A stretch of 64,000 bases of DNA from Gammaproteobacteria bacterium (GCA_965203475.1 OZ241890.1:1513423-1577422), one strand, 5' to 3'; counted from the stretch's first letter, positions 5,306 to 63,490 are shown. Notes: a model not told the origin generated them from the sequence alone. Numbers and translations: made by a program.

Positions 5306-5476
5306 TCGTCAAGCTGGCAGGAATAATGTGTAGAAAAAAACCGACCAAGTACCTGCAGATGGCATGCATTTTTGCCACTTACAAGCAAAATCTTTGAATT
5401 AAACTTGAGAATATATATGAGAGAGAATTATTAGAAATTTGATTTAGGAGTTTATGTTTGTTCATTAAAAATTCAT

Positions 5477-6253
5477 CTACCACGGATACATTGATAACCA
5501 AATCCCTCCCCAAATAATCAAAGCTAATCCAGAAATAAACCTTGTCCACTTTACTGGCAGTGGTGATAACTTTTCAAACAATACAAATAGAGTGATTAAA
5601 ATTACCCACAACATGTTCATCACGCCCACAGAAAAAAGAATCGCCATTAACGCCCAGCAACAACCAACGCAAAATAGTCCATGCTTAAATCCCATGTTAA
5701 ATGCACCCCAGTAACCATCTTTCCATGAAGCCAACACAAATCCTAAAGGCGTTCTGCAATTATTCAGACAGACATCTTTAAGTGGCGTCCACTGATATAA
5801 ACCCGCAATTACAAGTATTCCTCCACTTAGTAAATAACTACGACTGTTCATCATTGGATTAAGTAAGCCTGATTCGTGTAAAGGCCATTGGATAAAACTA
5901 ATCACCACACTAAATACAACCCATGCAAATAAATAACCAAGTAGAAAAATATAGGTGGGGACAAATAATTGTTGGTTTAATTTCTTTTGTTTATTTACCG
6001 TTGCAAACATTGTCACCATAGGGGTAACGGTTGGCGTCATCATGGCAATCATCATCACCATCCACATAATGACCAGCATTATAAAATCGTAAGCGGTCCA
6101 TGCCCTGGCTCCTCCGCGCGGCGGCATCCACATTTCTACTATATGCATATTTTCCATTGCCCAGGCCATATAAAACATATAGGCCCACCCCACCGATGAC
6201 ACCAGAGCTAAGCCGAGAAAAATCAATAGTTTGTCGTTCGATCTTAGTTCCAT
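5477..6253 (-). CDS. DUF2182-like predicted metal-binding integral membrane protein (His/Met-rich)
   Basis: Multiple transmembrane segments; the Met/His-rich stretch MWMVMMIAMMTPTVTPMVTM. It is paired divergently with a DUF1326-like gene. Confidence 0.55.
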   Translation of the reverse strand: MELRSNDKLLIFLGLALVSSVGWAYMFYMAWAMENMHIVEMWMPPRGGARAWTAYDFIMLVIMWMVMMIAMMTPTVTPMVTMFATVNKQKKLNQQLFVPTYIFLLGYLFAWVVFSVVISFIQWPLHESGLLNPMMNSRSYLLSGGILVIAGLYQWTPLKDVCLNNCRTPLGFVLASWKDGYWGAFNMGFKHGLFCVGCCWALMAILFSVGVMNMLWVILITLFVLFEKLSPLPVKWTRFISGLALIIWGGIWLSMYPW

Positions 6254-7001: not shown

Positions 7002-7120
7002 TGAAAAATTTTTAAAATTTAAAAGTACTTAAATTTCACTGAATGACTTCGTCATACTTAATTTACGGGCAGTACCCGCCCGCAAGTGTGGTGGCTATGG
7101 TTGGACTTGAACCAACGACC
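7002..7120. repeat. Direct repeat copy 1 (119 bp) containing the 3' 32 nt of tRNA-Met plus 86 bp of its downstream flank; putative attR-like end
   Basis: Identical, apart from one A in a homopolymer, to 9018..9135. It ends inside the tRNA T-arm/acceptor sequence ggttggacttgaaccaacgacc. Confidence 0.85.
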
Positions 7121-7224
7121 CTAGCATATAGTCAGCTCATCGCGTAGGAGATTTTCCGTATCAAGATTAGAGCCTATATTAATTAATCAGATAAAACCTT
7201 CTATTTTCAGTTGGGGACAAATTC

Positions 7225-8976
7225 TTGAACGATACCAGCCAAGCAATCGAGCATAAAAATATTCATCTGCTTAATGATGATGAAACTCCTTTTGATTTTG
7301 TAATTGAATTACTTAGATCTATATTTTCAAAATCACAAAATGAAGCAGAAAAAATAGCCAAGGCAACAGATAGAACAGGTAAAGGCTTATGCGGCACATA
7401 CCCATCTGAAGTTGCAGATGTGTTGTTAACACGTGCACGACAATATATTACAGATCAAAGCCAACCTCTTAAACTTGCATCTGAAAATGTTGTAAAAAAT
7501 ACTGCTGTTTTGAAATGCGGTTTCTGTGGGAAATTTAAGGATCAAGTTAAACATTTAATAAGTGGAAAGGATACTTATATATGTGATGCATGTGTTCTCA
7601 CAAGCACTGAATTACTCCGAGAAAACCTAGCGGAAAAGAGATTTACATATGCATACGAGATGCTTAACTGGCATTTTGGAAATATCGCTGAAGAACAAAT
7701 AATCACCTCAAGTCGTTTTTTTCCTGCAAGAGTAAGAGTGGATTTACAACTCTCTATTGACTCGTTGCTAAGTGATGGCGTAATTAAATTTATTGGCATT
7801 CATAATGATAGAGAATATGAACAGCTTACTATGGCTACCCTACTTAAGAAAGGCCGACAACCAAAAATGATTGGCCCCATTCAAAGAGAAGATGTAGATA
7901 TTGGTGAGGATACTCCAGTTAAATGTTTAGCTAATGGACTTTGGATACTCAAAGAATCCGATGTTCCTTACGCTGTCTTAGTTACAAAGAACACTGATTA
8001 CACACATCAGAAATCAGGTATCACAATAGAAGCTGCAGCGCCAGCAGGTGAAGAGGCATCTAAAATCACAGAAAAATTTTTCAAAACTTTAGAAAAAGCT
8101 GTTAATACCTCCAAATCATATAGAGGCAAAGTTCTATCTCTAGATATGGCAAGTATGTATTCAGGCATGTCGAACGGTATAACAGTTCACAAGCTCTCTC
8201 CTGTTTCCCAAGATGATGTCATTCTGCCAAAGACCACAAGAGATGCACTAGATCGAAATGTAATAAACTTTGCAAAACAAAGATCTGAATTAGTTTCTCG
8301 TGGACAATCAACAAAAAAAGGATTGCTATTTTATGGACCACCAGGAACAGGTAAAACTCATACAATTAAATATCTAGCTTCAAATTTATCAGATCACACA
8401 ACACTATTAGTAACAGCAGAACAAGTTGGAATACTTGATGAATACTTCTCACTAGCCCGACTACTGCAACCATCTATTTTAGTTATTGAAGATGTAGATC
8501 TAATAGCAAAAGCCAGAGAGACAATAAACAGTCCGTGCGAAGAAGCATTACTAAATAAACTTCTGAATGAGATGGATGGTTTAAAAGAAGATGCAGAAGT
8601 ATTTTTTGTACTAACTACTAATCGTCCTGATACATTAGAAGATGCATTAGCATCTAGGCCTGGAAGGATAGATCAAGCCATTGAATTTCCTTTGCCCGAT
8701 GAAGCCGGCAGAGAAAAGCTTGTTAACCTATATAGTGCAGGCCTTAATCTAGATGAAAAACTGGTGAAAGTAGTCGTGAATAGAACTGAAAATGTAAGTG
8801 GTGCATTTATAAAAGAATTAATGAGGCGATCAACGCAATATAGTCTTGATCGTGGTGATGGTGATTCAGTCATTATTGAAGATATTGAAAGTGCGTTAGA
8901 AGAAATGCTCTTCTCTGGAGGAGTACTTAACACAAAACTTTTAGGTGGAGAAAACAAACAAGATCAAACTCATTGA
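7225..8976 (+). CDS. ClpS-like N-domain + ClpX-type C4 zinc ribbon + classic-clade AAA+ ATPase fusion protein
   Basis: The N-terminus LLNDDETPFDFVIELLRSIF...GKGLCGTY...EVADVLLTRARQY aligns with ClpS. CGFCGKFKDQVKHLISGKDTYICDAC resembles the ClpX zinc-binding domain (C-x2-C-x19-C-x2-C). Walker A GPPGTGKTH, Walker B ILVIEDVDL and SRH ...SRPGRIDQ are present. The start codon is TTG. Confidence 0.85.
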   Translation: MNDTSQAIEHKNIHLLNDDETPFDFVIELLRSIFSKSQNEAEKIAKATDRTGKGLCGTYPSEVADVLLTRARQYITDQSQPLKLASENVVKNTAVLKCGFCGKFKDQVKHLISGKDTYICDACVLTSTELLRENLAEKRFTYAYEMLNWHFGNIAEEQIITSSRFFPARVRVDLQLSIDSLLSDGVIKFIGIHNDREYEQLTMATLLKKGRQPKMIGPIQREDVDIGEDTPVKCLANGLWILKESDVPYAVLVTKNTDYTHQKSGITIEAAAPAGEEASKITEKFFKTLEKAVNTSKSYRGKVLSLDMASMYSGMSNGITVHKLSPVSQDDVILPKTTRDALDRNVINFAKQRSELVSRGQSTKKGLLFYGPPGTGKTHTIKYLASNLSDHTTLLVTAEQVGILDEYFSLARLLQPSILVIEDVDLIAKARETINSPCEEALLNKLLNEMDGLKEDAEVFFVLTTNRPDTLEDALASRPGRIDQAIEFPLPDEAGREKLVNLYSAGLNLDEKLVKVVVNRTENVSGAFIKELMRRSTQYSLDRGDGDSVIIEDIESALEEMLFSGGVLNTKLLGGENKQDQTH

Positions 8977-9017
8977 TGGACTTTTGCCTGACTTGTAGTG
9001 CTCCGTTGTGCTTTGTT

Positions 9018-9135
9018 TGAAAATTTTTAAAATTTAAAAGTACTTAAATTTCACTGAATGACTTCGTCATACTTAATTTACGGGCAGTACCCGCCCGCAA
9101 GTGTGGTGGCTATGGTTGGACTTGAACCAACGACC
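9018..9135. repeat. Direct repeat copy 2, overlapping the 3' part of the intact tRNA-Met and its downstream flank (attL-like)
   Basis: See copy 1. Confidence 0.85.
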
Positions 9136-9180
9136 CCAGCATTATGAATGCTGTGCTCTAACCAACTGAGCTACATAGCC
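9104..9180 (-). tRNA. tRNA-Met (anticodon CAT), elongator-like; a lysidine tRNA-Ile2 cannot be fully excluded
   Basis: Reverse complement GGCTATGTAGCTCAGTTGGTTAGAGCACAGCATTCATAATGCTGGGGTCGTTGGTTCAAGTCCAACCATAGCCACCA. This is a full cloverleaf with an encoded CCA and is close to E. coli metT. Confidence 0.9.
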
Positions 9181-25278: not shown

Positions 25279-26073
25279 GTGTCAGTCGTCATGATGACGG
25301 TCGACCATCACTTTAATCATTTGCGTACCCTGCGCTCGACACTCAGCGTAGTCATGTATCCGCTTGAATACTTAGCTGGCCTCCCCTTTAAAATTTACGA
25401 CTGGAGTGCAGAATCTTTTTCCGAACGTAATAAACTATTAAGCAACAATGCAAGCCTGCGCGCAGAACAAATTCGTCTTGAATTACAACTACAAAAACTT
25501 GCCACATTGGAGCAAGAAAACGAACGATTACGAAATTTACTTTCTTCAGCAAAATATTTTAAAGAAGAACGTTTACTCATCGCCGAATTATTATCAGTAG
25601 ATTTAGATCCCTATCGTCAACGCATAGTTATTAACAAAGGTACACGTGATGGTGTTTTTGTCGGGCAACCCTTGTTGGGCGCAAAAGGTATTATTGGGCA
25701 AATTGATAAAGCCGGTCCTTTTAACTCGGTAGCCATTTTAATATCGGACCCGAATCATGCATTACTAGGTGTCGTCGCAAGAAGTGGCCAACGAAGCTTA
25801 ATTGTAGGTACTGGAAATATTCAAAGTTTGGAGCTTCTGCATTTAACCAGTACCGCAGATATTAAAATTGGTGATTTAGTTATTACCTCAGGTTTAGATG
25901 AACGTTACCCATCGGACTATCCTGTGGCTGAAATCACCAGCATTCAACAAGTGTCGGGCGAACCCTTTGTAAAAGTAGAAGCCAAACCGCTGGTTGAACT
26001 CAATACGATTCGTGAAGTGTTATTAATTTGGCCGCATGGATTGGAAACCAATTTTACGGCTGAAAATAATTAA
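25279..26073 (+). CDS. mreC: Rod-shape-determining protein MreC (start uncertain, see findings)
   Basis: Coiled-coil plus beta-domain with MreC-like sequence. The N-terminal transmembrane helix continues in frame upstream of the GTG start. Confidence 0.8.
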   Translation: MSVVMMTVDHHFNHLRTLRSTLSVVMYPLEYLAGLPFKIYDWSAESFSERNKLLSNNASLRAEQIRLELQLQKLATLEQENERLRNLLSSAKYFKEERLLIAELLSVDLDPYRQRIVINKGTRDGVFVGQPLLGAKGIIGQIDKAGPFNSVAILISDPNHALLGVVARSGQRSLIVGTGNIQSLELLHLTSTADIKIGDLVITSGLDERYPSDYPVAEITSIQQVSGEPFVKVEAKPLVELNTIREVLLIWPHGLETNFTAENN

Positions 26074-26085
26074 AAAAACCAAACC

Positions 26086-26568
26086 ATGACATCACCCTCC
26101 AACTTTTTTGTCATCGTCGTCACCTTTATTGTGGCTGCAATTTTGATGTTGATGCCCTTACCAGAATGGGCACGTCCTTATCGACCTGAATGGCTAGCGC
26201 TTGCCATCATTTACTGGAGCATCGCTTTCCCTAAAAAAGTGGGTGTTGGAACAGCTTGGGTGGTGGGATTGTTTGTCGATGTGATTCAAGGTGCATTATT
26301 AGGACAACACGCGTTAGGTTTTGCTATTACAGCCTACATTGCCATTCGCTTTCATCAACGTATTCGCAATTACCCTTTACACCAACAATCTATGTTTGTC
26401 GGCATGATCTTATTACCCTACATGAGTGTTTCGTTATGGATTTTGGGCATACTGGGAGAAGACCCTAAATCCTGGTCGTATTGGGCACCCGTGGTGACCA
26501 GTGTAATCGTTTGGCCGTGGATATTTATCGTTTTACGCGCCGTACGACGATCAAGTGTGATGTATTAA
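26086..26568 (+). CDS. mreD: Rod-shape-determining protein MreD
   Basis: Polytopic membrane protein following mreC. Confidence 0.85.
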   Translation: MTSPSNFFVIVVTFIVAAILMLMPLPEWARPYRPEWLALAIIYWSIAFPKKVGVGTAWVVGLFVDVIQGALLGQHALGFAITAYIAIRFHQRIRNYPLHQQSMFVGMILLPYMSVSLWILGILGEDPKSWSYWAPVVTSVIVWPWIFIVLRAVRRSSVMY

Positions 26569-26598
26569 TTATTAGTAAATTAAAGTTAGAAAATCTTA

Positions 26599-26767
26599 AA
26601 GTCCGCTTACGTGCTTGAGCCTAGGGACAATGTGCATGGATACACAAGTGTCGCGGGAGACAGGAAGTCGGGAGCAACCGTGCGAATAAGAGCTACAACA
26701 GGGATGTTGTATCAGATTAAAATCAGTAATTCTTAAAACGTCCACTTACGGCCAATAGCGGACATTA
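26599..26767 (+). repeat. MITE-like element copy A (~169 bp, terminal inverted repeats GTCCGCTTACG ... CGGCCAATAGCGGACATT)
   Basis: The core gtgcatggatacacaagtgtcgcgggagacaggaagtcgggagcaaccgtgcgaataagag is shared with copies at 46.3, 47.2, 48.0 and 27.2 kb. The terminal inverted repeats (TIRs) are palindromic. Confidence 0.75.
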
Positions 26768-26776
26768 TTATTAATA

Positions 26777-27100
26777 CTAAGTACCTGACCATACTCCCCA
26801 TGTTTCACAAATTCCACCATACGGAGCAGCAATTTTAGATGCTTCATTTTGTATTTTGATTACTAATTCATATGTAATTAAATCGTTTATTTGAAATTGT
26901 ATATAACCATCAAACTCTTTATCAGGTTCTATTACTTTGATTTCTTTGTACCTAGCAGTAAGTTTATTTAGTAACTCTGGATTGGGCGGCCAATGATTCA
27001 GATCAATATTAAAATCGATAATATGTTTGATATTAAAGTCCATTCCTCCTGCTTCTATTCGTCTTAACGCATCGCCAACTGCATCATTTGGGAATTGCAT
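26777..27100 (-). CDS. Orphan hypothetical protein (107 aa) bracketed by inverted MITE copies
   Basis: ORF; no recognisable domain. Confidence 0.45.
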   Translation of the reverse strand: MQFPNDAVGDALRRIEAGGMDFNIKHIIDFNIDLNHWPPNPELLNKLTARYKEIKVIEPDKEFDGYIQFQINDLITYELVIKIQNEASKIAAPYGGICETWGVWSGT

Positions 27101-27142
27101 AAAGTTCCAACATATTTTTAATTGATTACGTGTCGTATATTA

Positions 27143-27262
27143 ATGTCCGATTTGGGTCGTAATCTGCACTTCCTACTTCCGTGTAGGTCGTCCATGATGG
27201 AAATCTTATTCGCGCGGCGCTGCCGACATCCTGTCTTTCGCGACACTTGTGTGTTCTACACA
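27143..27262 (-). repeat. MITE-like element copy B (inverted relative to A)
   Basis: Its reverse complement aligns with copy A (..cacaagtgtcgcgaaagacaggatgtcggcagcgccgcgcgaataagatttccatcatgg..). It begins with aatgtccga and ends overlapping the last codons of the GTPase gene. Confidence 0.7.
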
Positions 27263-28713
27263 TCGCCCTTATGTTGGCCAGACGGATTGGTATATTCATC
27301 ATTTAGTTTTTGGATAAAAACATTTGCACGATTTTTTATATCTAATAATTTTTCTCGTGCTGACCTGTTCCAACCGACGATAAATGGACGTGCTAATGAT
27401 CGCCACCATCGAGTGTTGTGTAAAAACCCAGAACGTACATATTGATCCGTAATTCCTTCTTCTAACGTTGATGCCATCCATCTTGCAATAAATTTTCGCA
27501 CAAAAAAGTGAATAGCAATTAACAAAATAGCCAAAAGCACAAATAGAAAAAGTAACCCATATTGATCACCGGCATTGTATTCCCCTGCAGTTCCATAGTG
27601 CTTCAGTAGATACACTACAAAAGCAATAAAAATTGGAATAAAAATTACCGCATCAACGACTAACACTCGCTTGGCCCAAATTCGCACAGCTTTTTGAATT
27701 TTAGGCACAAATGATTTTTCGATTTGATTCGCCGTATGCTCTAAAGAACCAACAATGCGATAAATTCGCTCTACACTCACTTCAGAAATACGTTGATAGA
27801 TTTCTTGCAAATCTACATCTCGTTTGCGCTGATATCGTTCACGCAATGATGCATCTTCAATGGGAACCGCAGCATTTTCATTGTAAATTGAATAAAAACG
27901 CCCGCTGACAAGTCCTGCTTGTGCAATCGCACGCTGCCAGGCAGCCACCACGTCCTCTGCATTATCTTCCGATGCCGTTGTGTCTATTTGATTAAGAATA
28001 AACAACACTTTATTCGAATCATTGCGTCGCACTGTCCCCGCAACCAAATGATCTAATGTATCTCGCATTGCTCCAGGTTCTGGGTGTCTTGCATCAAATA
28101 TCACTAACACCAAATCTGATAAATTTATAATGTGATCGGTAATACGTAAGATAGAGGTCCGTTGCGCATCGGCATCAAAACCTGGCGAATCGATAAAAAT
28201 TTTGCCTTTAATTAAATCGGTGGGGCAGGTTTTTAATTGCAAGTAGGTGTCAATTCTTGAACCTTCCCCTTGGGCAACTTTTTCAATTTCTTGACTAATC
28301 TTATAAAAAGGAAATCGAGGATCTGCATCAAGCGCTAAACCAGGCAACACGCGCACTTTTTCATCACTGCTGAAACATATTACGGTAAATTTATCGTCAA
28401 CCGCTTGATTGCCAGTTTTTTGCAAATCGGTTTGTACATAATGATTAATAAAAGTAGATTTGCCTGCCGAAAACGTACCCAACACTGAAATTAATGGCCA
28501 CCAGGAAATGTCAGTAGTAAAGGATTGCTTATTAGACAAAATACCTAATTTGTAGGCAATTTTATCCAGTTCACAAAAGTGATCGACCACAGAGACAAGC
28601 AAGGGATTTTCGCTTGAAAGATGATCACGAAGACTTTTTATTCTAGTTTTTAAATTAGCATCAGGTCCAGCCAGCATTTTAAACCCACAAACTATATGAA
28701 CTAAATGATACAA
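27256..28713 (-). CDS. Dynamin-family (BDLP/mitofusin-like) GTPase with C-terminal transmembrane hairpin
   Basis: G1 GTFSAGKST, G3 DSPG, G4 NQID. Two hydrophobic helices lie at ~aa 355-405. Confidence 0.65.
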   Translation of the reverse strand: MYHLVHIVCGFKMLAGPDANLKTRIKSLRDHLSSENPLLVSVVDHFCELDKIAYKLGILSNKQSFTTDISWWPLISVLGTFSAGKSTFINHYVQTDLQKTGNQAVDDKFTVICFSSDEKVRVLPGLALDADPRFPFYKISQEIEKVAQGEGSRIDTYLQLKTCPTDLIKGKIFIDSPGFDADAQRTSILRITDHIINLSDLVLVIFDARHPEPGAMRDTLDHLVAGTVRRNDSNKVLFILNQIDTTASEDNAEDVVAAWQRAIAQAGLVSGRFYSIYNENAAVPIEDASLRERYQRKRDVDLQEIYQRISEVSVERIYRIVGSLEHTANQIEKSFVPKIQKAVRIWAKRVLVVDAVIFIPIFIAFVVYLLKHYGTAGEYNAGDQYGLLFLFVLLAILLIAIHFFVRKFIARWMASTLEEGITDQYVRSGFLHNTRWWRSLARPFIVGWNRSAREKLLDIKNRANVFIQKLNDEYTNPSGQHKGDV

Positions 28714-46017: not shown

Positions 46018-46275
46018 ATGGAGCTCGTTATGAAAATTAGAATATTCCTGATTGTAATGCTTTCGATTCTTCCAATCACCTATGTGGTGGCATTTACTGG
46101 TCCACCCAGTATTTATTACAGCCAATATTTCAATCGTGGCGATCAATTAAAAAAATCATACAAAGATGTGCATGGTGAAAGCTACGAAAACTACAGCAAA
46201 CGCATCCGCGAAGAAGTTGAAAGAAAATCTATTCAAGAATCGGATAAAAAAATCAATATACAAGAAGACAACTAA
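46018..46275 (+). CDS. Small secreted hypothetical protein (85 aa)
   Basis: Signal peptide; ORF only. Confidence 0.3.
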   Translation: MELVMKIRIFLIVMLSILPITYVVAFTGPPSIYYSQYFNRGDQLKKSYKDVHGESYENYSKRIREEVERKSIQESDKKINIQEDN

Positions 46276-46297
46276 ATTCAAAATTTGTGAATACAAG

Positions 46298-46430
46298 GAT
46301 AGTGAGCATAGAGACGATGTGCATGGATGCACAAGTGTCGTGGTAGACAGGAAGTCGGGAGCGACCATGCGAATATGAGTTCCATCAGGGATGATGCAAC
46401 CGAATAAGAATATTAACTGGTTGCATCATC
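46298..46430 (+). repeat. MITE-like element copy C (partial, lacks clear TIRs; internal 12-bp hairpin gatgatgcaacc/ggttgcatcatc)
   Basis: About 80% identity to the copy A core over ~100 bp. Confidence 0.7.
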
Positions 46431-47155
46431 TAACTATTATTTTTAATGTGCATTGTTAGACTTTTGTTTTCTACAACGAATGACTGGCCGTGCCAACCAA
46501 ATTGTAAGAATGAGGAAAATTCCCATTCATTATTATTAGAAAATAACTCAAGCATAGCCATTCTTTCACCAGAAATTTGTGTTGCTGACCAACAAAAGTA
46601 ATCATCAAAGGCAATAATCATTCCATGTTTTAAACGCGGCAAAAGAAACTGAAGCACTTCTTTTGCACTCGAATAAAGATCGCAATCGATGTATGCAAGT
46701 GCAATATTTTTTGGCGCATCTTCATCCGTCAAATTTTGCAAGGTTTCTTCATAAAATCCTGGTATCACTTTATAGGCATCTCTTGGTATGCCTTGCGCAG
46801 CACAAAGTCTATGAAACGTTTCTAGGGGCGTAGATAATTTTTTCTCGACCCATTTTGGGTGTGAATCTTTTGACTCTGCAGGTGCCGGAAGTCCTTCAAA
46901 TGAATCAAATGCCCATAATTTGGCAATGTGCTTATGCCGAGTGGCCTCACGGTAAGCCAGAGAAAATGTTTTTGCGCCATGACAACCAAACTCAGCATAA
47001 TCTCCATCTATCCCATTAAACGAAAGCGCCCTAAAAGCATTGTAAAAAAATTCTTTTCGACCTTCTCGTTCTTTTACATGAATAAGAGGATCACGCCTGC
47101 TAGAATTTTTTAAAATACTTGACTCAATTCTTTTCAATAAATATTTAAGATTCAT
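46430..47155 (-). CDS. Class I SAM-dependent methyltransferase, TylF/MycF (macrocin O-methyltransferase) family
   Basis: AFDSFEGLP and YIDCDLY motifs. Confidence 0.7.
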   Translation of the reverse strand: MNLKYLLKRIESSILKNSSRRDPLIHVKEREGRKEFFYNAFRALSFNGIDGDYAEFGCHGAKTFSLAYREATRHKHIAKLWAFDSFEGLPAPAESKDSHPKWVEKKLSTPLETFHRLCAAQGIPRDAYKVIPGFYEETLQNLTDEDAPKNIALAYIDCDLYSSAKEVLQFLLPRLKHGMIIAFDDYFCWSATQISGERMAMLELFSNNNEWEFSSFLQFGWHGQSFVVENKSLTMHIKNNS

Positions 47156-47196
47156 CCTGTATCAATTTGCTACGTTTTGTATTTATTAAGTATACA

Positions 47197-47300
47197 GTTA
47201 GTGAGCACAGGGATGTGCGAATATGAGTCGAATCATGGAGGATTCGAACCGGTTAAAGTTTTAATTTCCAATGTCCGCTATCGGCCAATAGCGGACATTT
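47197..47300 (+). repeat. MITE-like element copy D (internally deleted; ends in perfect hairpin AATGTCCGCTATCGGCCAATAGCGGACATT)
   Basis: Shares the agtgagcacagggatgtgcgaatatgag core and the terminal palindrome. Confidence 0.7.
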
Positions 47301-47393
47301 GTTAGATCCAAAGTAGCATAAATCTATGTATCAGCATTTAAGCCTGAAGTTGTCATCAATATAAAAAAAACAGTTCACATTGGCCTATACGCA

Positions 47394-47963
47394 TCATGTT
47401 GACTCATTCAATTTCAATGTTATTTTACCTGGCCATTCTTGCTCTAAGCGTTTTATTAGTTCAGGCATGAACTGCTCGTATGAATGCTTCGTGTGAAAAA
47501 CAATACCTGCTTTAGGTCTGTAGTAATTATTGGTTGCTTTTAATGACATCGATCTAAAAAATAATGACCGCCAATGATACCAGTCCATAAATATCATGGG
47601 ACTATCATCAATCAATTCCTGAGTTTCTTTAAAACTCTCATATTGTGCTTCTAGCGAGTCATGTTCGTAGGGATACCGTACGACATCATTTTTAAAAGTC
47701 TCGAACGAGATAGGTGCTTTCAATTTGCGACGCAGTTTCGTATGCCTATCAGAAGAGTCTCTTAATTGAAAATTCGTATCAGACGTAAATTCAGTCATAA
47801 CTTGACGCAGTTGTTTGAATTGATCTGGTTCTATATCAATCCCTAACACACCATATTGCTGATAACTGAGTATATAGGCAAGATTGATGATAAATATCAA
47901 TCCAACTATCGCGATTGGAGTTACTACTATATACCCTACCAGTTTACGTAATTTTTTTCTCAT
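47394..47963 (-). CDS. Hypothetical protein with N-terminal TM anchor (189 aa)
   Basis: ORF with one N-terminal hydrophobic helix. Confidence 0.4.
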   Translation of the reverse strand: MRKKLRKLVGYIVVTPIAIVGLIFIINLAYILSYQQYGVLGIDIEPDQFKQLRQVMTEFTSDTNFQLRDSSDRHTKLRRKLKAPISFETFKNDVVRYPYEHDSLEAQYESFKETQELIDDSPMIFMDWYHWRSLFFRSMSLKATNNYYRPKAGIVFHTKHSYEQFMPELIKRLEQEWPGKITLKLNEST

Positions 47964-47976
47964 ATCATGATGTGTT

Positions 47977-48143
47977 AAATGTCCACTTTAGGTCGTAAGC
48001 AGACATTCAGTAGAAAAAATTATTCTGTTCACATCATCCATGATGGAAATCTTATTCGCACGATCGATCCTGACTTCCTGTCTACCGCGACACTTGTGCA
48101 TCCATGCACATCGTCCTTTTGCTCAGAATCAATATCGGACATT
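47977..48143 (-). repeat. MITE-like element copy E (full length, inverted; TIRs AAATGTCCAC ... ATCGGACATTT)
   Basis: Its reverse complement aligns with copy A across the core (gtgcatggatgcacaagtgtcgcggtagacaggaagtc...cgtgcgaataagatttccatcatgg). Confidence 0.75.
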
Positions 48144-52435: not shown

Positions 52436-52555
52436 ACATTAGAATATCTGCAGCTTCCCTACGCCAGCATGACCTGGATCAGGTACTTAGAGTAATTCTC
52501 AGCCCATGCAACAAACTAACTGTTTCTCGTTGGGCTCCCCTAGCCTCAGTGATGC
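52436..52555 (-). promoter_or_regulatory. TPP (THI-box) riboswitch in the thiC leader
   Basis: The minus strand carries ctaggggagccc...gggCTGAGAattactctaagtACCTGATCCAGGTCATGCTGGCGTAGGGAAg, matching the conserved THI-element core. Confidence 0.8.
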
Positions 52556-63369: not shown

Positions 63370-63490
63370 AGCATTAAGTGATAATGAATGAAATAAATAG
63401 ATAGAAACTTTATTATAACTTAAAATACATTTTATAAACTTTATTCATCAGTCCCGAGTCTCGCGCATTGAATTCTTTGTCGATATTTGT

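Follow-up and report, generated by a model that had tools for sequence, protein, structure and literature searches.

Within a 64,000-nucleotide (nt) stretch of DNA from a Gammaproteobacteria bacterium (GCA_965203475.1 OZ241890.1:1513423-1577422; this whole 64-kb stretch is hereafter called the window), a gap of 687 nt separates mreD from a convergently oriented gene for a dynamin-like GTPase. The gap contains a gene of 107 amino acids (aa) belonging to the RraB family, together with two inverted copies, A and B, of a small hairpin-rich repeat, one on either side of the gene. The explanation that we favour overall, and consider probable, is that of an accessory RraB gene lodged in a variable gap beside independent members of a dispersed family of hairpin elements found at gene 3' ends. 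An earlier sequence-only reading had interpreted the same block as a composite mobilisable cassette bracketed by two copies of an element resembling a MITE (a miniature transposable element with inverted repeats), a model that is disfavoured by the occurrence of copy B on its own in relatives, by the divergence between both arms and by the lack of a flanking direct repeat. The features of the locus are as follows:

26086..26568, plus strand: mreD, last gene of mreBCD (Pfam MreD, E 2.2e-24), left conserved flank
26597..26770, plus strand (mreD orientation): copy A of the repeat, long form (covariance-model match 26611-26725, 116.5 bits, E 1e-34)
26777..27100, minus strand: RraB-family gene, 107 aa (PF06877, E 2.5e-11), lineage-specific accessory gene
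27137..27283, minus strand (GTPase orientation): copy B of the repeat, long form, degenerate (covariance-model match 27170-27282, 89.3 bits, E 5e-26)
27256..28713, minus strand: dynamin-like GTPase gene (Pfam Dynamin_N, E 7e-14), right conserved flank, convergent with mreD

The mreD/GTPase gap and its RraB-family gene

The basic layout described by the sequence-only reading was confirmed, including the end of mreD at 26568, the plus-oriented repeat copy after it, the 107-aa open reading frame (ORF) on the minus strand and the inverted second copy. Both flanks are conserved. Indeed, the GTPase has more than 5000 homologues, and the clade whose GTPases are 73-76% identical, the closest one, keeps the gene order gatCA-mreBCD followed by the convergent GTPase gene, a haem-binding ChaN-like gene and RNase D. 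The dynamin-like GTPase gene was observed convergent to mreBCD clade-wide (the window and loci L023-L028); its PADLOC match to LeoA is weak (E 4e-5). What lies between the two flanks differs from one relative to another:

L026: mreD/GTPase gap of 0 nt, with neither gene nor repeat in between
L027: mreD/GTPase gap of 2 nt, with neither gene nor repeat in between
L004/L032: 100 nt from the mreD stop to the GTPase stop, occupied by one long-form repeat in GTPase orientation that starts at the GTPase stop codon
L023/L024: gap of 191 nt that starts with a degenerate copy of the short form, which encodes the final codons of the GTPase
L028 (GTPase 64% identical): EamA gene in the gap, no repeat hit there
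L025: junction rearranged

The RraB gene is missing from this site in L004, L023, L024, L026 and L027. The gap is variable among relatives, and the RraB gene and copy A are specific to the window lineage. The earlier suggestion that the block is an insert relative to related genomes was thus borne out for these two components, both of which are lacking in L026 and L027, where mreD and the GTPase gene are found adjacent without the insert. Copy B has a different history. Since L004/L032 and L023/L024, which have neither the gene nor copy A, carry solo orthologues at the same position, copy B predates the RraB gene or is independent of it, and is not part of the insert. It had been described as abutting the stop of the GTPase gene. 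The contact is real, but the last ~8 GTPase codons (including QHKGDV) and the stop TAG at 27256-27258 lie inside the repeat. The final GTPase codons come from the repeat in three lineages, reading QHKGDV* in the window, ER* in L004 and ERKDM* in L023.

The statement that the 107-aa ORF has no recognisable domain was wrong. Its protein scores 44.5 bits against Pfam PF06877 (curated cut-off 23.3), with residues 6-103 aligned on profile positions 2-102 of 102. An exhaustive HMMER search yielded 154 family representatives, all similar in length, and a family profile built from 65 of them retrieved VC0424 (1NXI) from the PDB with an E value of 0.006. The AlphaFold model of the protein (pLDDT 95.1, pTM 0.86) likewise ranked 1NXI first in a Foldseek search of the PDB (E 6.5e-4, TM 0.65), with 15% identity in the structural alignment. 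No match for the protein was obtained in NCBIfam, PADLOC or PHROGs. The ORF, clearly coding and not conserved at this position in relatives, can be assigned by sequence and predicted fold to the RraB family as a genuine gene.

The best homologues of this protein are 50-58% identical, and none above 58% identity was found among 1.84 billion representatives. The gene is present in single copy within the window, and its GC content (33.3%) is lower than that of mreD (44.7%), the GTPase gene (38.7%) or the window as a whole (38.5%). The genomic contexts of its homologues are diverse: one (P0004) adjoins SMI1/SUKH and TPR genes, another, in L022, is flanked by unrelated genes and by no GGA-hairpin repeats, and the closest (P0125, 58% identity) belongs to an array of small ORFs that all run in the same direction. 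In this array (L046, 1-4546; also L045 and L047) each ORF is followed by an attC-like repeat of ~60 nt, CTAACCCATCATTCAAGCGGGAC...CCCCTTAATTCAAACGTTAG, ending in GTTAG, with 10 copies in 4.5 kb, which we read from its sequence as a probable integron-type cassette array. No attC site follows the stop of the window gene, where the palindrome of copy A is found and no GTTRRRY/RYYYAAC pair is present, and no integrase or attI is evident near the gene. Given the cassette and SUKH-neighbour contexts of its homologues, binding to the C-terminal region of RNase E, with modulation of RNase E activity, is not established for the window protein.

The higher AT content of the gene compared with its neighbours, the lack of a close orthologue and the integron-type context of its nearest homologue suggest that it was acquired horizontally, the gap where two transcripts end being a presumably permissive site. 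No convincing promoter was found in the interval between the GTPase and RraB genes, and no intrinsic terminator was predicted in 26000-28000, so that the terminal palindrome of the repeat is not a canonical terminator.

A dispersed family of GGA-hairpin repeats

A covariance model was built from 12 repeat copies and every position of the window was scored with it. Exactly five copies were found, namely A and B in the mreD/GTPase gap and three others some 20 kb away:

46298..46440, plus strand: copy C, long form, directly 3' of a co-oriented 85-aa ORF (covariance-model match 46298-46412, 122.8 bits)
47197..47300, plus strand: copy E, short form without the ~50-nt core (covariance-model match 47197-47260, 37.7 bits, E 9e-10)
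47978..48143, minus strand: copy D, long form, directly 3' of a co-oriented 164-aa ORF (covariance-model match 48016-48130, 116 bits)

Weak matches of the model at 63405 and 31266 were judged to be chance after reading. A 30-nt pattern taken from the core of the repeat gave 4 matches in the window and 0 in 100 shuffles. The family is small, non-coding and multi-copy, with more copies in related metagenome-assembled genomes (MAGs). Several short ORFs of 41-107 aa lie wholly or mostly within repeats, at 26596-26745 (minus), 26611-26736 (plus), 27118-27246 (minus), 27122-27445 (plus) and 46166-46378 (plus); these are probably spurious, with a risk of being annotated as genes by mistake.

The long form begins with an arm, (A)GTGAGCACA-NGGA, followed by the ~50-nt core made of two hairpins, GTGCA-TGGA-TGCAC and GTCGC-GGGA-GACA-GGA-TGTC-GGGA-GCGAC. 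After the core come GTGCGAATAAGAG, a third hairpin with the loop A(N)GGAT and an AT-rich stretch, and the 3' end is often a 30-nt palindrome, AATGTCCGC...GCGGACATT, whose arms are found in the window at repeat loci only. Copies A and D have the AATGTCCGC arm at their 5' end as well; most copies lack it. In copy A, a half palindrome (26598-26609) precedes the body (26611-26725) with its three GGA-loop hairpins, and 10 nt lie between the end of the terminal palindrome (26737-26766) and the RraB stop. Copy B, separated by 37 nt from the RraB start codon downstream of it, carries a 24-nt nested module in hairpin 3 and retains of the terminal palindrome the right arm alone (27142-27153). Copy D has both the 5' half palindrome (48132-48143) and the terminal one (47978-48007), copy E a perfect terminal palindrome (47270-47299; fold z-score -3.4), and copy C differs at its 3' end, which is a long hairpin (fold z-score -4.98). 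No consistent target-site duplication of the MITE type was found around the copies.

Over the 115-nt body, copies A and B are 62.6% identical, the lowest value of all pairs in the window, compared with 79% each for A-C and C-D; thus, A and B each match copies 20 kb away better than one another. The arms detected between them by a repeat finder are 26642-26704 with 27191-27252, and 26746-26771 with 27137-27162. Across 28 distinct copies, covariation exceeded that of all 500 shuffles and was concentrated in hairpin 3, where compensatory changes affect five of the six pairs, the core helices being almost invariant. The GGA in the loop of hairpin 3 is kept in 19 of 22 full-length elements across many different stems. 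The five window copies together contain 26 GGA and 8 TCC (shuffles, 15.9 +/- 3.3; copy A alone, 7 and 2), and GGA reaches a density of 35 per kb in the copies compared with ~10 per kb in the window background.

In the clade, most copies stand immediately 3' of a gene and in the same orientation, often overlapping its stop codon. By our own tally, the stop of a co-oriented ORF lies within ~45 nt of the 5' end of the element in 13 of about 17 evaluable non-redundant full-length copies, and in several of them the gene stop is the TAA or TGA inside the 5' motif GT(A/G)AGC of the element. Copies A and B follow this rule. They face each other because each follows its own host gene in that gene's orientation, and mreD and the GTPase gene converge. 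The inversion would therefore arise solely from the convergence of the host genes, and we infer that A and B are not arms of one transposable unit.

Several observations indicate that the ~50-nt core behaves as a separate insert. In the long forms the core follows GGGA; at the corresponding place, copy E and a copy in L011, both of the short form, show a simple hairpin instead, GCACA-GGGA-TGTGC. In L003, a 5' fragment of tRNA-Arg (5440-5520) reads GTAGCTCAGTTGGA-[50 nt core]-TAGAGTAC, and an intact tRNA-Arg located 120 nt from it (5583-5659) reads GTAGCTCAGTTGGATAGAGTAC, a filled/intact pair from which it follows that the core was inserted after GGA in the D-loop with no duplication. The possibility that this insert is a tRNA intron was rejected, as its carrier is a 5' tRNA fragment only, next to an intact tRNA-Arg. 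The core was also found in frame in an intact 969-aa valS of three Cellvibrio MAGs (L006, L014 and L020) and in an intact 363-aa obg gene (L034); in these genes it is translated as D(D)VQ.xTSVA.DRKSGAT. Between species, the valS core is 94-100% identical, whereas the flanking valS sequence is 79-86% identical, a difference that points to homogenisation, to repeated insertion or to constraint on the nucleotide sequence itself.

Other ~50-nt modules of like design, starting with CGAC and having TGGA in the loop of their first hairpin and AGGA within that of the second, are present inside element loops in L015, L029, L007, L018 and L017. By reading, 13 of 15 distinct junctions lie directly after GGA, with CAG (L034) and CCG (L010, L030 and L031) as exceptions. 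The exact core pattern occurs at 21 loci in species-representative genomes and at 14 loci in metagenome contigs, with 0 matches in a pattern scan of viral contigs; the genome carriers are mostly gammaproteobacterial MAGs, plus single MAGs labelled Pirellulaceae and Mycobacterium that may be binning errors. A full repeat copy gave no BLAST match in plasmid and phage collections, and a full-text literature string search for the core sequence found no paper. The GGA junctions, the lack of duplication in one filled/intact pair, the nesting in loops, the in-frame tolerance and the near-invariance across orders are compatible with the suggestion, made with considerable doubt, that the double hairpin CGATGTGCA-TGGA-TGCAC AAGT GTCGC-GGGA-GACA-GGA-TGTC-GGGA-GCGAC constitutes a tiny mobile module of a previously undescribed kind. 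That the core enters with no duplication and beside a short invariable sequence is reminiscent of single-strand HUH/Y1 transposition, an analogy to be read together with the absence of a Y1 transposase from the window and the fetched loci in a search with one IS200 TnpA query. If this suggestion is true, each module adds two canonical-looking CsrA-type sites, and its movement would spread sites of post-transcriptional control or build a CsrA sponge.

A further possibility, compatible with the favoured explanation and held tentatively, is that the repeats are functional RNA modules whose GGA-loop hairpins, co-transcribed within 3' (or 5') untranslated regions, bind a protein of the CsrA/RsmA type, which would tie numerous genes, among them mreBCD, the GTPase gene and the RraB gene, to such a regulator, or titrate it. 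The CsrB repeat is CAGGAUG, and the CsrA consensus obtained by systematic evolution of ligands by exponential enrichment is RUACARGGAUGU. Both are presumably matched by the CA(N)GGATG loops of the window repeats (GTGCA-TGGA-TGCAC, GACA-GGA-TGTC and CAACA-GGGA-TGTTG). The CsrA-type motif has been given as AGGA/ANGGA in stem-loops (bioRxiv 10.1101/679134). The enrichment in GGA, the retention of the hairpin-3 loop GGA while its stem covaries, the bias of copies towards the sense orientation after genes and the presence of csrA in one core-bearing genome are all consistent with such a role. Nevertheless, no relevant Rfam match was found, either in the whole window at the gathering score or in 26540-27320 at E <= 5, where CsrB/Rsm models gave none even at E 5; G-U and A-C counts are alike (10 and 9); the core occurs inside coding sequences too; and GGA precedes the module at most junctions, so that a DNA-level reason for GGA loops exists. 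In L003, csrA was observed 5 kb upstream of the core-bearing tRNA-Arg fragment. If the GGA loops do bind CsrA, the family would be a mobile element spreading the binding sites of a global RNA regulator.

Alternative accounts of the bracketed gene

According to the favoured explanation, the RraB gene would have been gained horizontally into the gap where the mreD and GTPase transcripts end, and would probably be transcribed by read-through from the GTPase gene across copy B. The repeats, probably non-autonomous mobile palindromes, would spread as non-autonomous insertions, with the ~50-nt core entering mostly 3' of GGA, often in a hairpin loop; as structured RNA in 3' untranslated regions they would be tolerated or retained, perhaps serving as binding sites of the CsrA type.

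The window holds a second islet (46298-48143) bordered by inverted copies, C (plus) and D (minus), with short-form copy E in its middle. Copy C comes after an 85-aa ORF on the plus strand and copy D after a 164-aa ORF on the minus strand, and between them lie, besides copy E, a gene for a TylF-like methyltransferase (241 aa) and a 189-aa ORF without family match. In L043 and L044, other genes are found between msrA and the gene at the syntenic position of the 164-aa ORF, and in L043 the 3' end of that gene is overlapped by a short-form copy, whose place corresponds to that of copy D and which may be its orthologue, judging from gene order only. Thus, both bracketed loci are variable gaps in which each conserved border gene has its own 3' element.

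This second locus bears on the account that has the hairpin elements act as hot spots of recombination or integration, assisting gene capture in a unit that is itself no transposon. We regard this as unlikely, with some evidence in its favour: both repeat-rich loci of the window vary among relatives and hold different accessory genes, and repeat copies stand on both borders of each islet. However, only two loci were compared, the gap varies also in L028, where the EamA gene is present but no repeat hit was obtained, insertion is as a rule tolerated in gaps between convergent genes, and no junction homology was found.

It is very unlikely that the RraB gene is ancestral at the mreD/GTPase junction and was deleted in the sampled relatives. 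Relatives that are ~75% identical cannot strictly fix the direction of change, and the junction is clearly unstable; against this, at least four relatives (L004, L023/L024, L026 and L027) are without the gene, the 0-2-nt junctions of L026 and L027 look pristine, no homologue exceeds 58% identity in the 1.84 billion representatives, and the GC content of the gene is below that of its neighbours.

Least probable is the composite mobile cassette, in which two inverted MITE copies moved the RraB gene as one unit in the manner of transposon arms: two inverted copies do flank the gene, the block is missing in L026 and L027 and a second inverted pair brackets accessory-looking genes at 46.3-48.1 kb, but L004/L032 and L023/L024 have copy B on its own at the very same nucleotide position, arm identity is 62.6%, no direct repeat was seen on reading the sequence left of 26597 and right of 27283 or reported by a repeat finder within 26000-28000, the gene is single-copy in the window with homologues flanked otherwise (attC-like repeats in L046, unrelated genes in L022), the single IS200 TnpA query revealed no transposase in the window or in the loci retrieved, and the inverted arrangement follows from the usual placement, each convergent gene having its own co-oriented 3' copy.

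The explanation of an accessory gene beside independent 3'-end elements has points against it as well. Identity in the GTPase is no higher than ~75% even for the nearest relatives available, and the timing and direction of the change (gain in the window lineage versus loss elsewhere) consequently rest on parsimony, GC content and gene rarity. Accessory genes are enclosed by "head-out" inverted copies at two places within the 64 kb, and the repeats could take part in gene capture or make gaps more prone to DNA uptake. Copy counts for the gene and the repeats cover the 64-kb window of the host genome. Finally, the equal numbers of G-U and A-C wobble pairs reveal no strand preference, and a role at the RNA level is therefore not demonstrated.

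Two further features of the window were observed. Two direct repeats of 123 nt, 99% identical, at 7005-7127 and 9020-9142 enclose an ORF of 583 aa in which ClpS, a ClpX-type zinc finger and an AAA ATPase domain are fused, and the right-hand repeat overlaps a tRNA-Met gene (9104-9180, minus strand); this block (7005-9142) has the appearance either of a small insertion that entered at a tRNA gene or of a locally duplicated stretch. A thiamine pyrophosphate (TPP) riboswitch lies at 52439-52551 on the minus strand (64 bits, above the Rfam gathering score).

Comparison with known systems

The presence of an RraB gene in a variable gap is in itself ordinary, and what gives the result its value is that the earlier account is corrected, the gene being a member of a known family and the cassette model having failed. 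The locus shares with MITE-flanked composite units the two inverted small non-coding repeats on either side of a gene, and differs from them in its 63% identical arms, in having no visible target duplication and in the solo occurrence of one arm in relatives. The likeness to integron gene cassettes resides in the closest homologue, P0125, an array ORF with an attC-like repeat, whereas the window gene is without such a site and is flanked by GGA-hairpin repeats. Regarding RraB (YjgD of E. coli) and VC0424, the window protein resembles them in its full-length match to the family hidden Markov model, its predicted 1NXI alpha/beta fold and its nature as a small acidic protein; its subfamily differs in being found as integron-type cassettes, as we read them, and beside SUKH/SMI1 genes.

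The repeat family is the more interesting part, and filled-versus-intact comparisons allow its insertion rules to be read directly. With CsrB, RsmY and RsmZ it has in common the several short hairpins, the CAGGAUG/ANGGA loops and the distance of ~25 nt between neighbouring GGA motifs; in contrast to these RNAs, the repeats are multi-copy, dispersed, situated at the ends of coding genes and without a covariance-model match. Like REP/BIME elements (GTAG- and CGTC-tagged), they are extragenic palindromes of short length that frequently occupy gene 3' ends, make up mosaics and dimers and in some cases lie inside genes. They differ from REP/BIME in the absence of a conserved GTAG tag (GTAG is found in copies C and D only, by chance position), in a junction that reads GGA|CGA (GACG on this strand) and not 5' CGTC, and in their GGA-loop hairpins and ~50-nt modules that nest in one another. 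No dedicated transposase has been found for the CGTC class of palindromic repeats (PMC3733652).

In their landing in frame in essential genes, the repeats recall the Rickettsia palindromic elements (RPE), which are likewise palindromic repeats placed in frame in intact protein genes and in RNA genes; the counterparts in the present family are the in-frame core of the intact valS and obg genes and the core carried by a tRNA fragment. RPE are 100-150 nt long and, to our knowledge, confined to Rickettsia, whereas the core measures ~50 nt and is distributed over MAGs labelled as several gammaproteobacterial groups, together with those labelled Pirellulaceae and Mycobacterium. By analogy, the repeats appear to work like REP/BIME and RPE while failing, or leaving open, the defining tags of those families, and their sequences point to three additional features, namely the GGA loops, the nesting modules and a core that is near-invariant across MAGs assigned to several orders.

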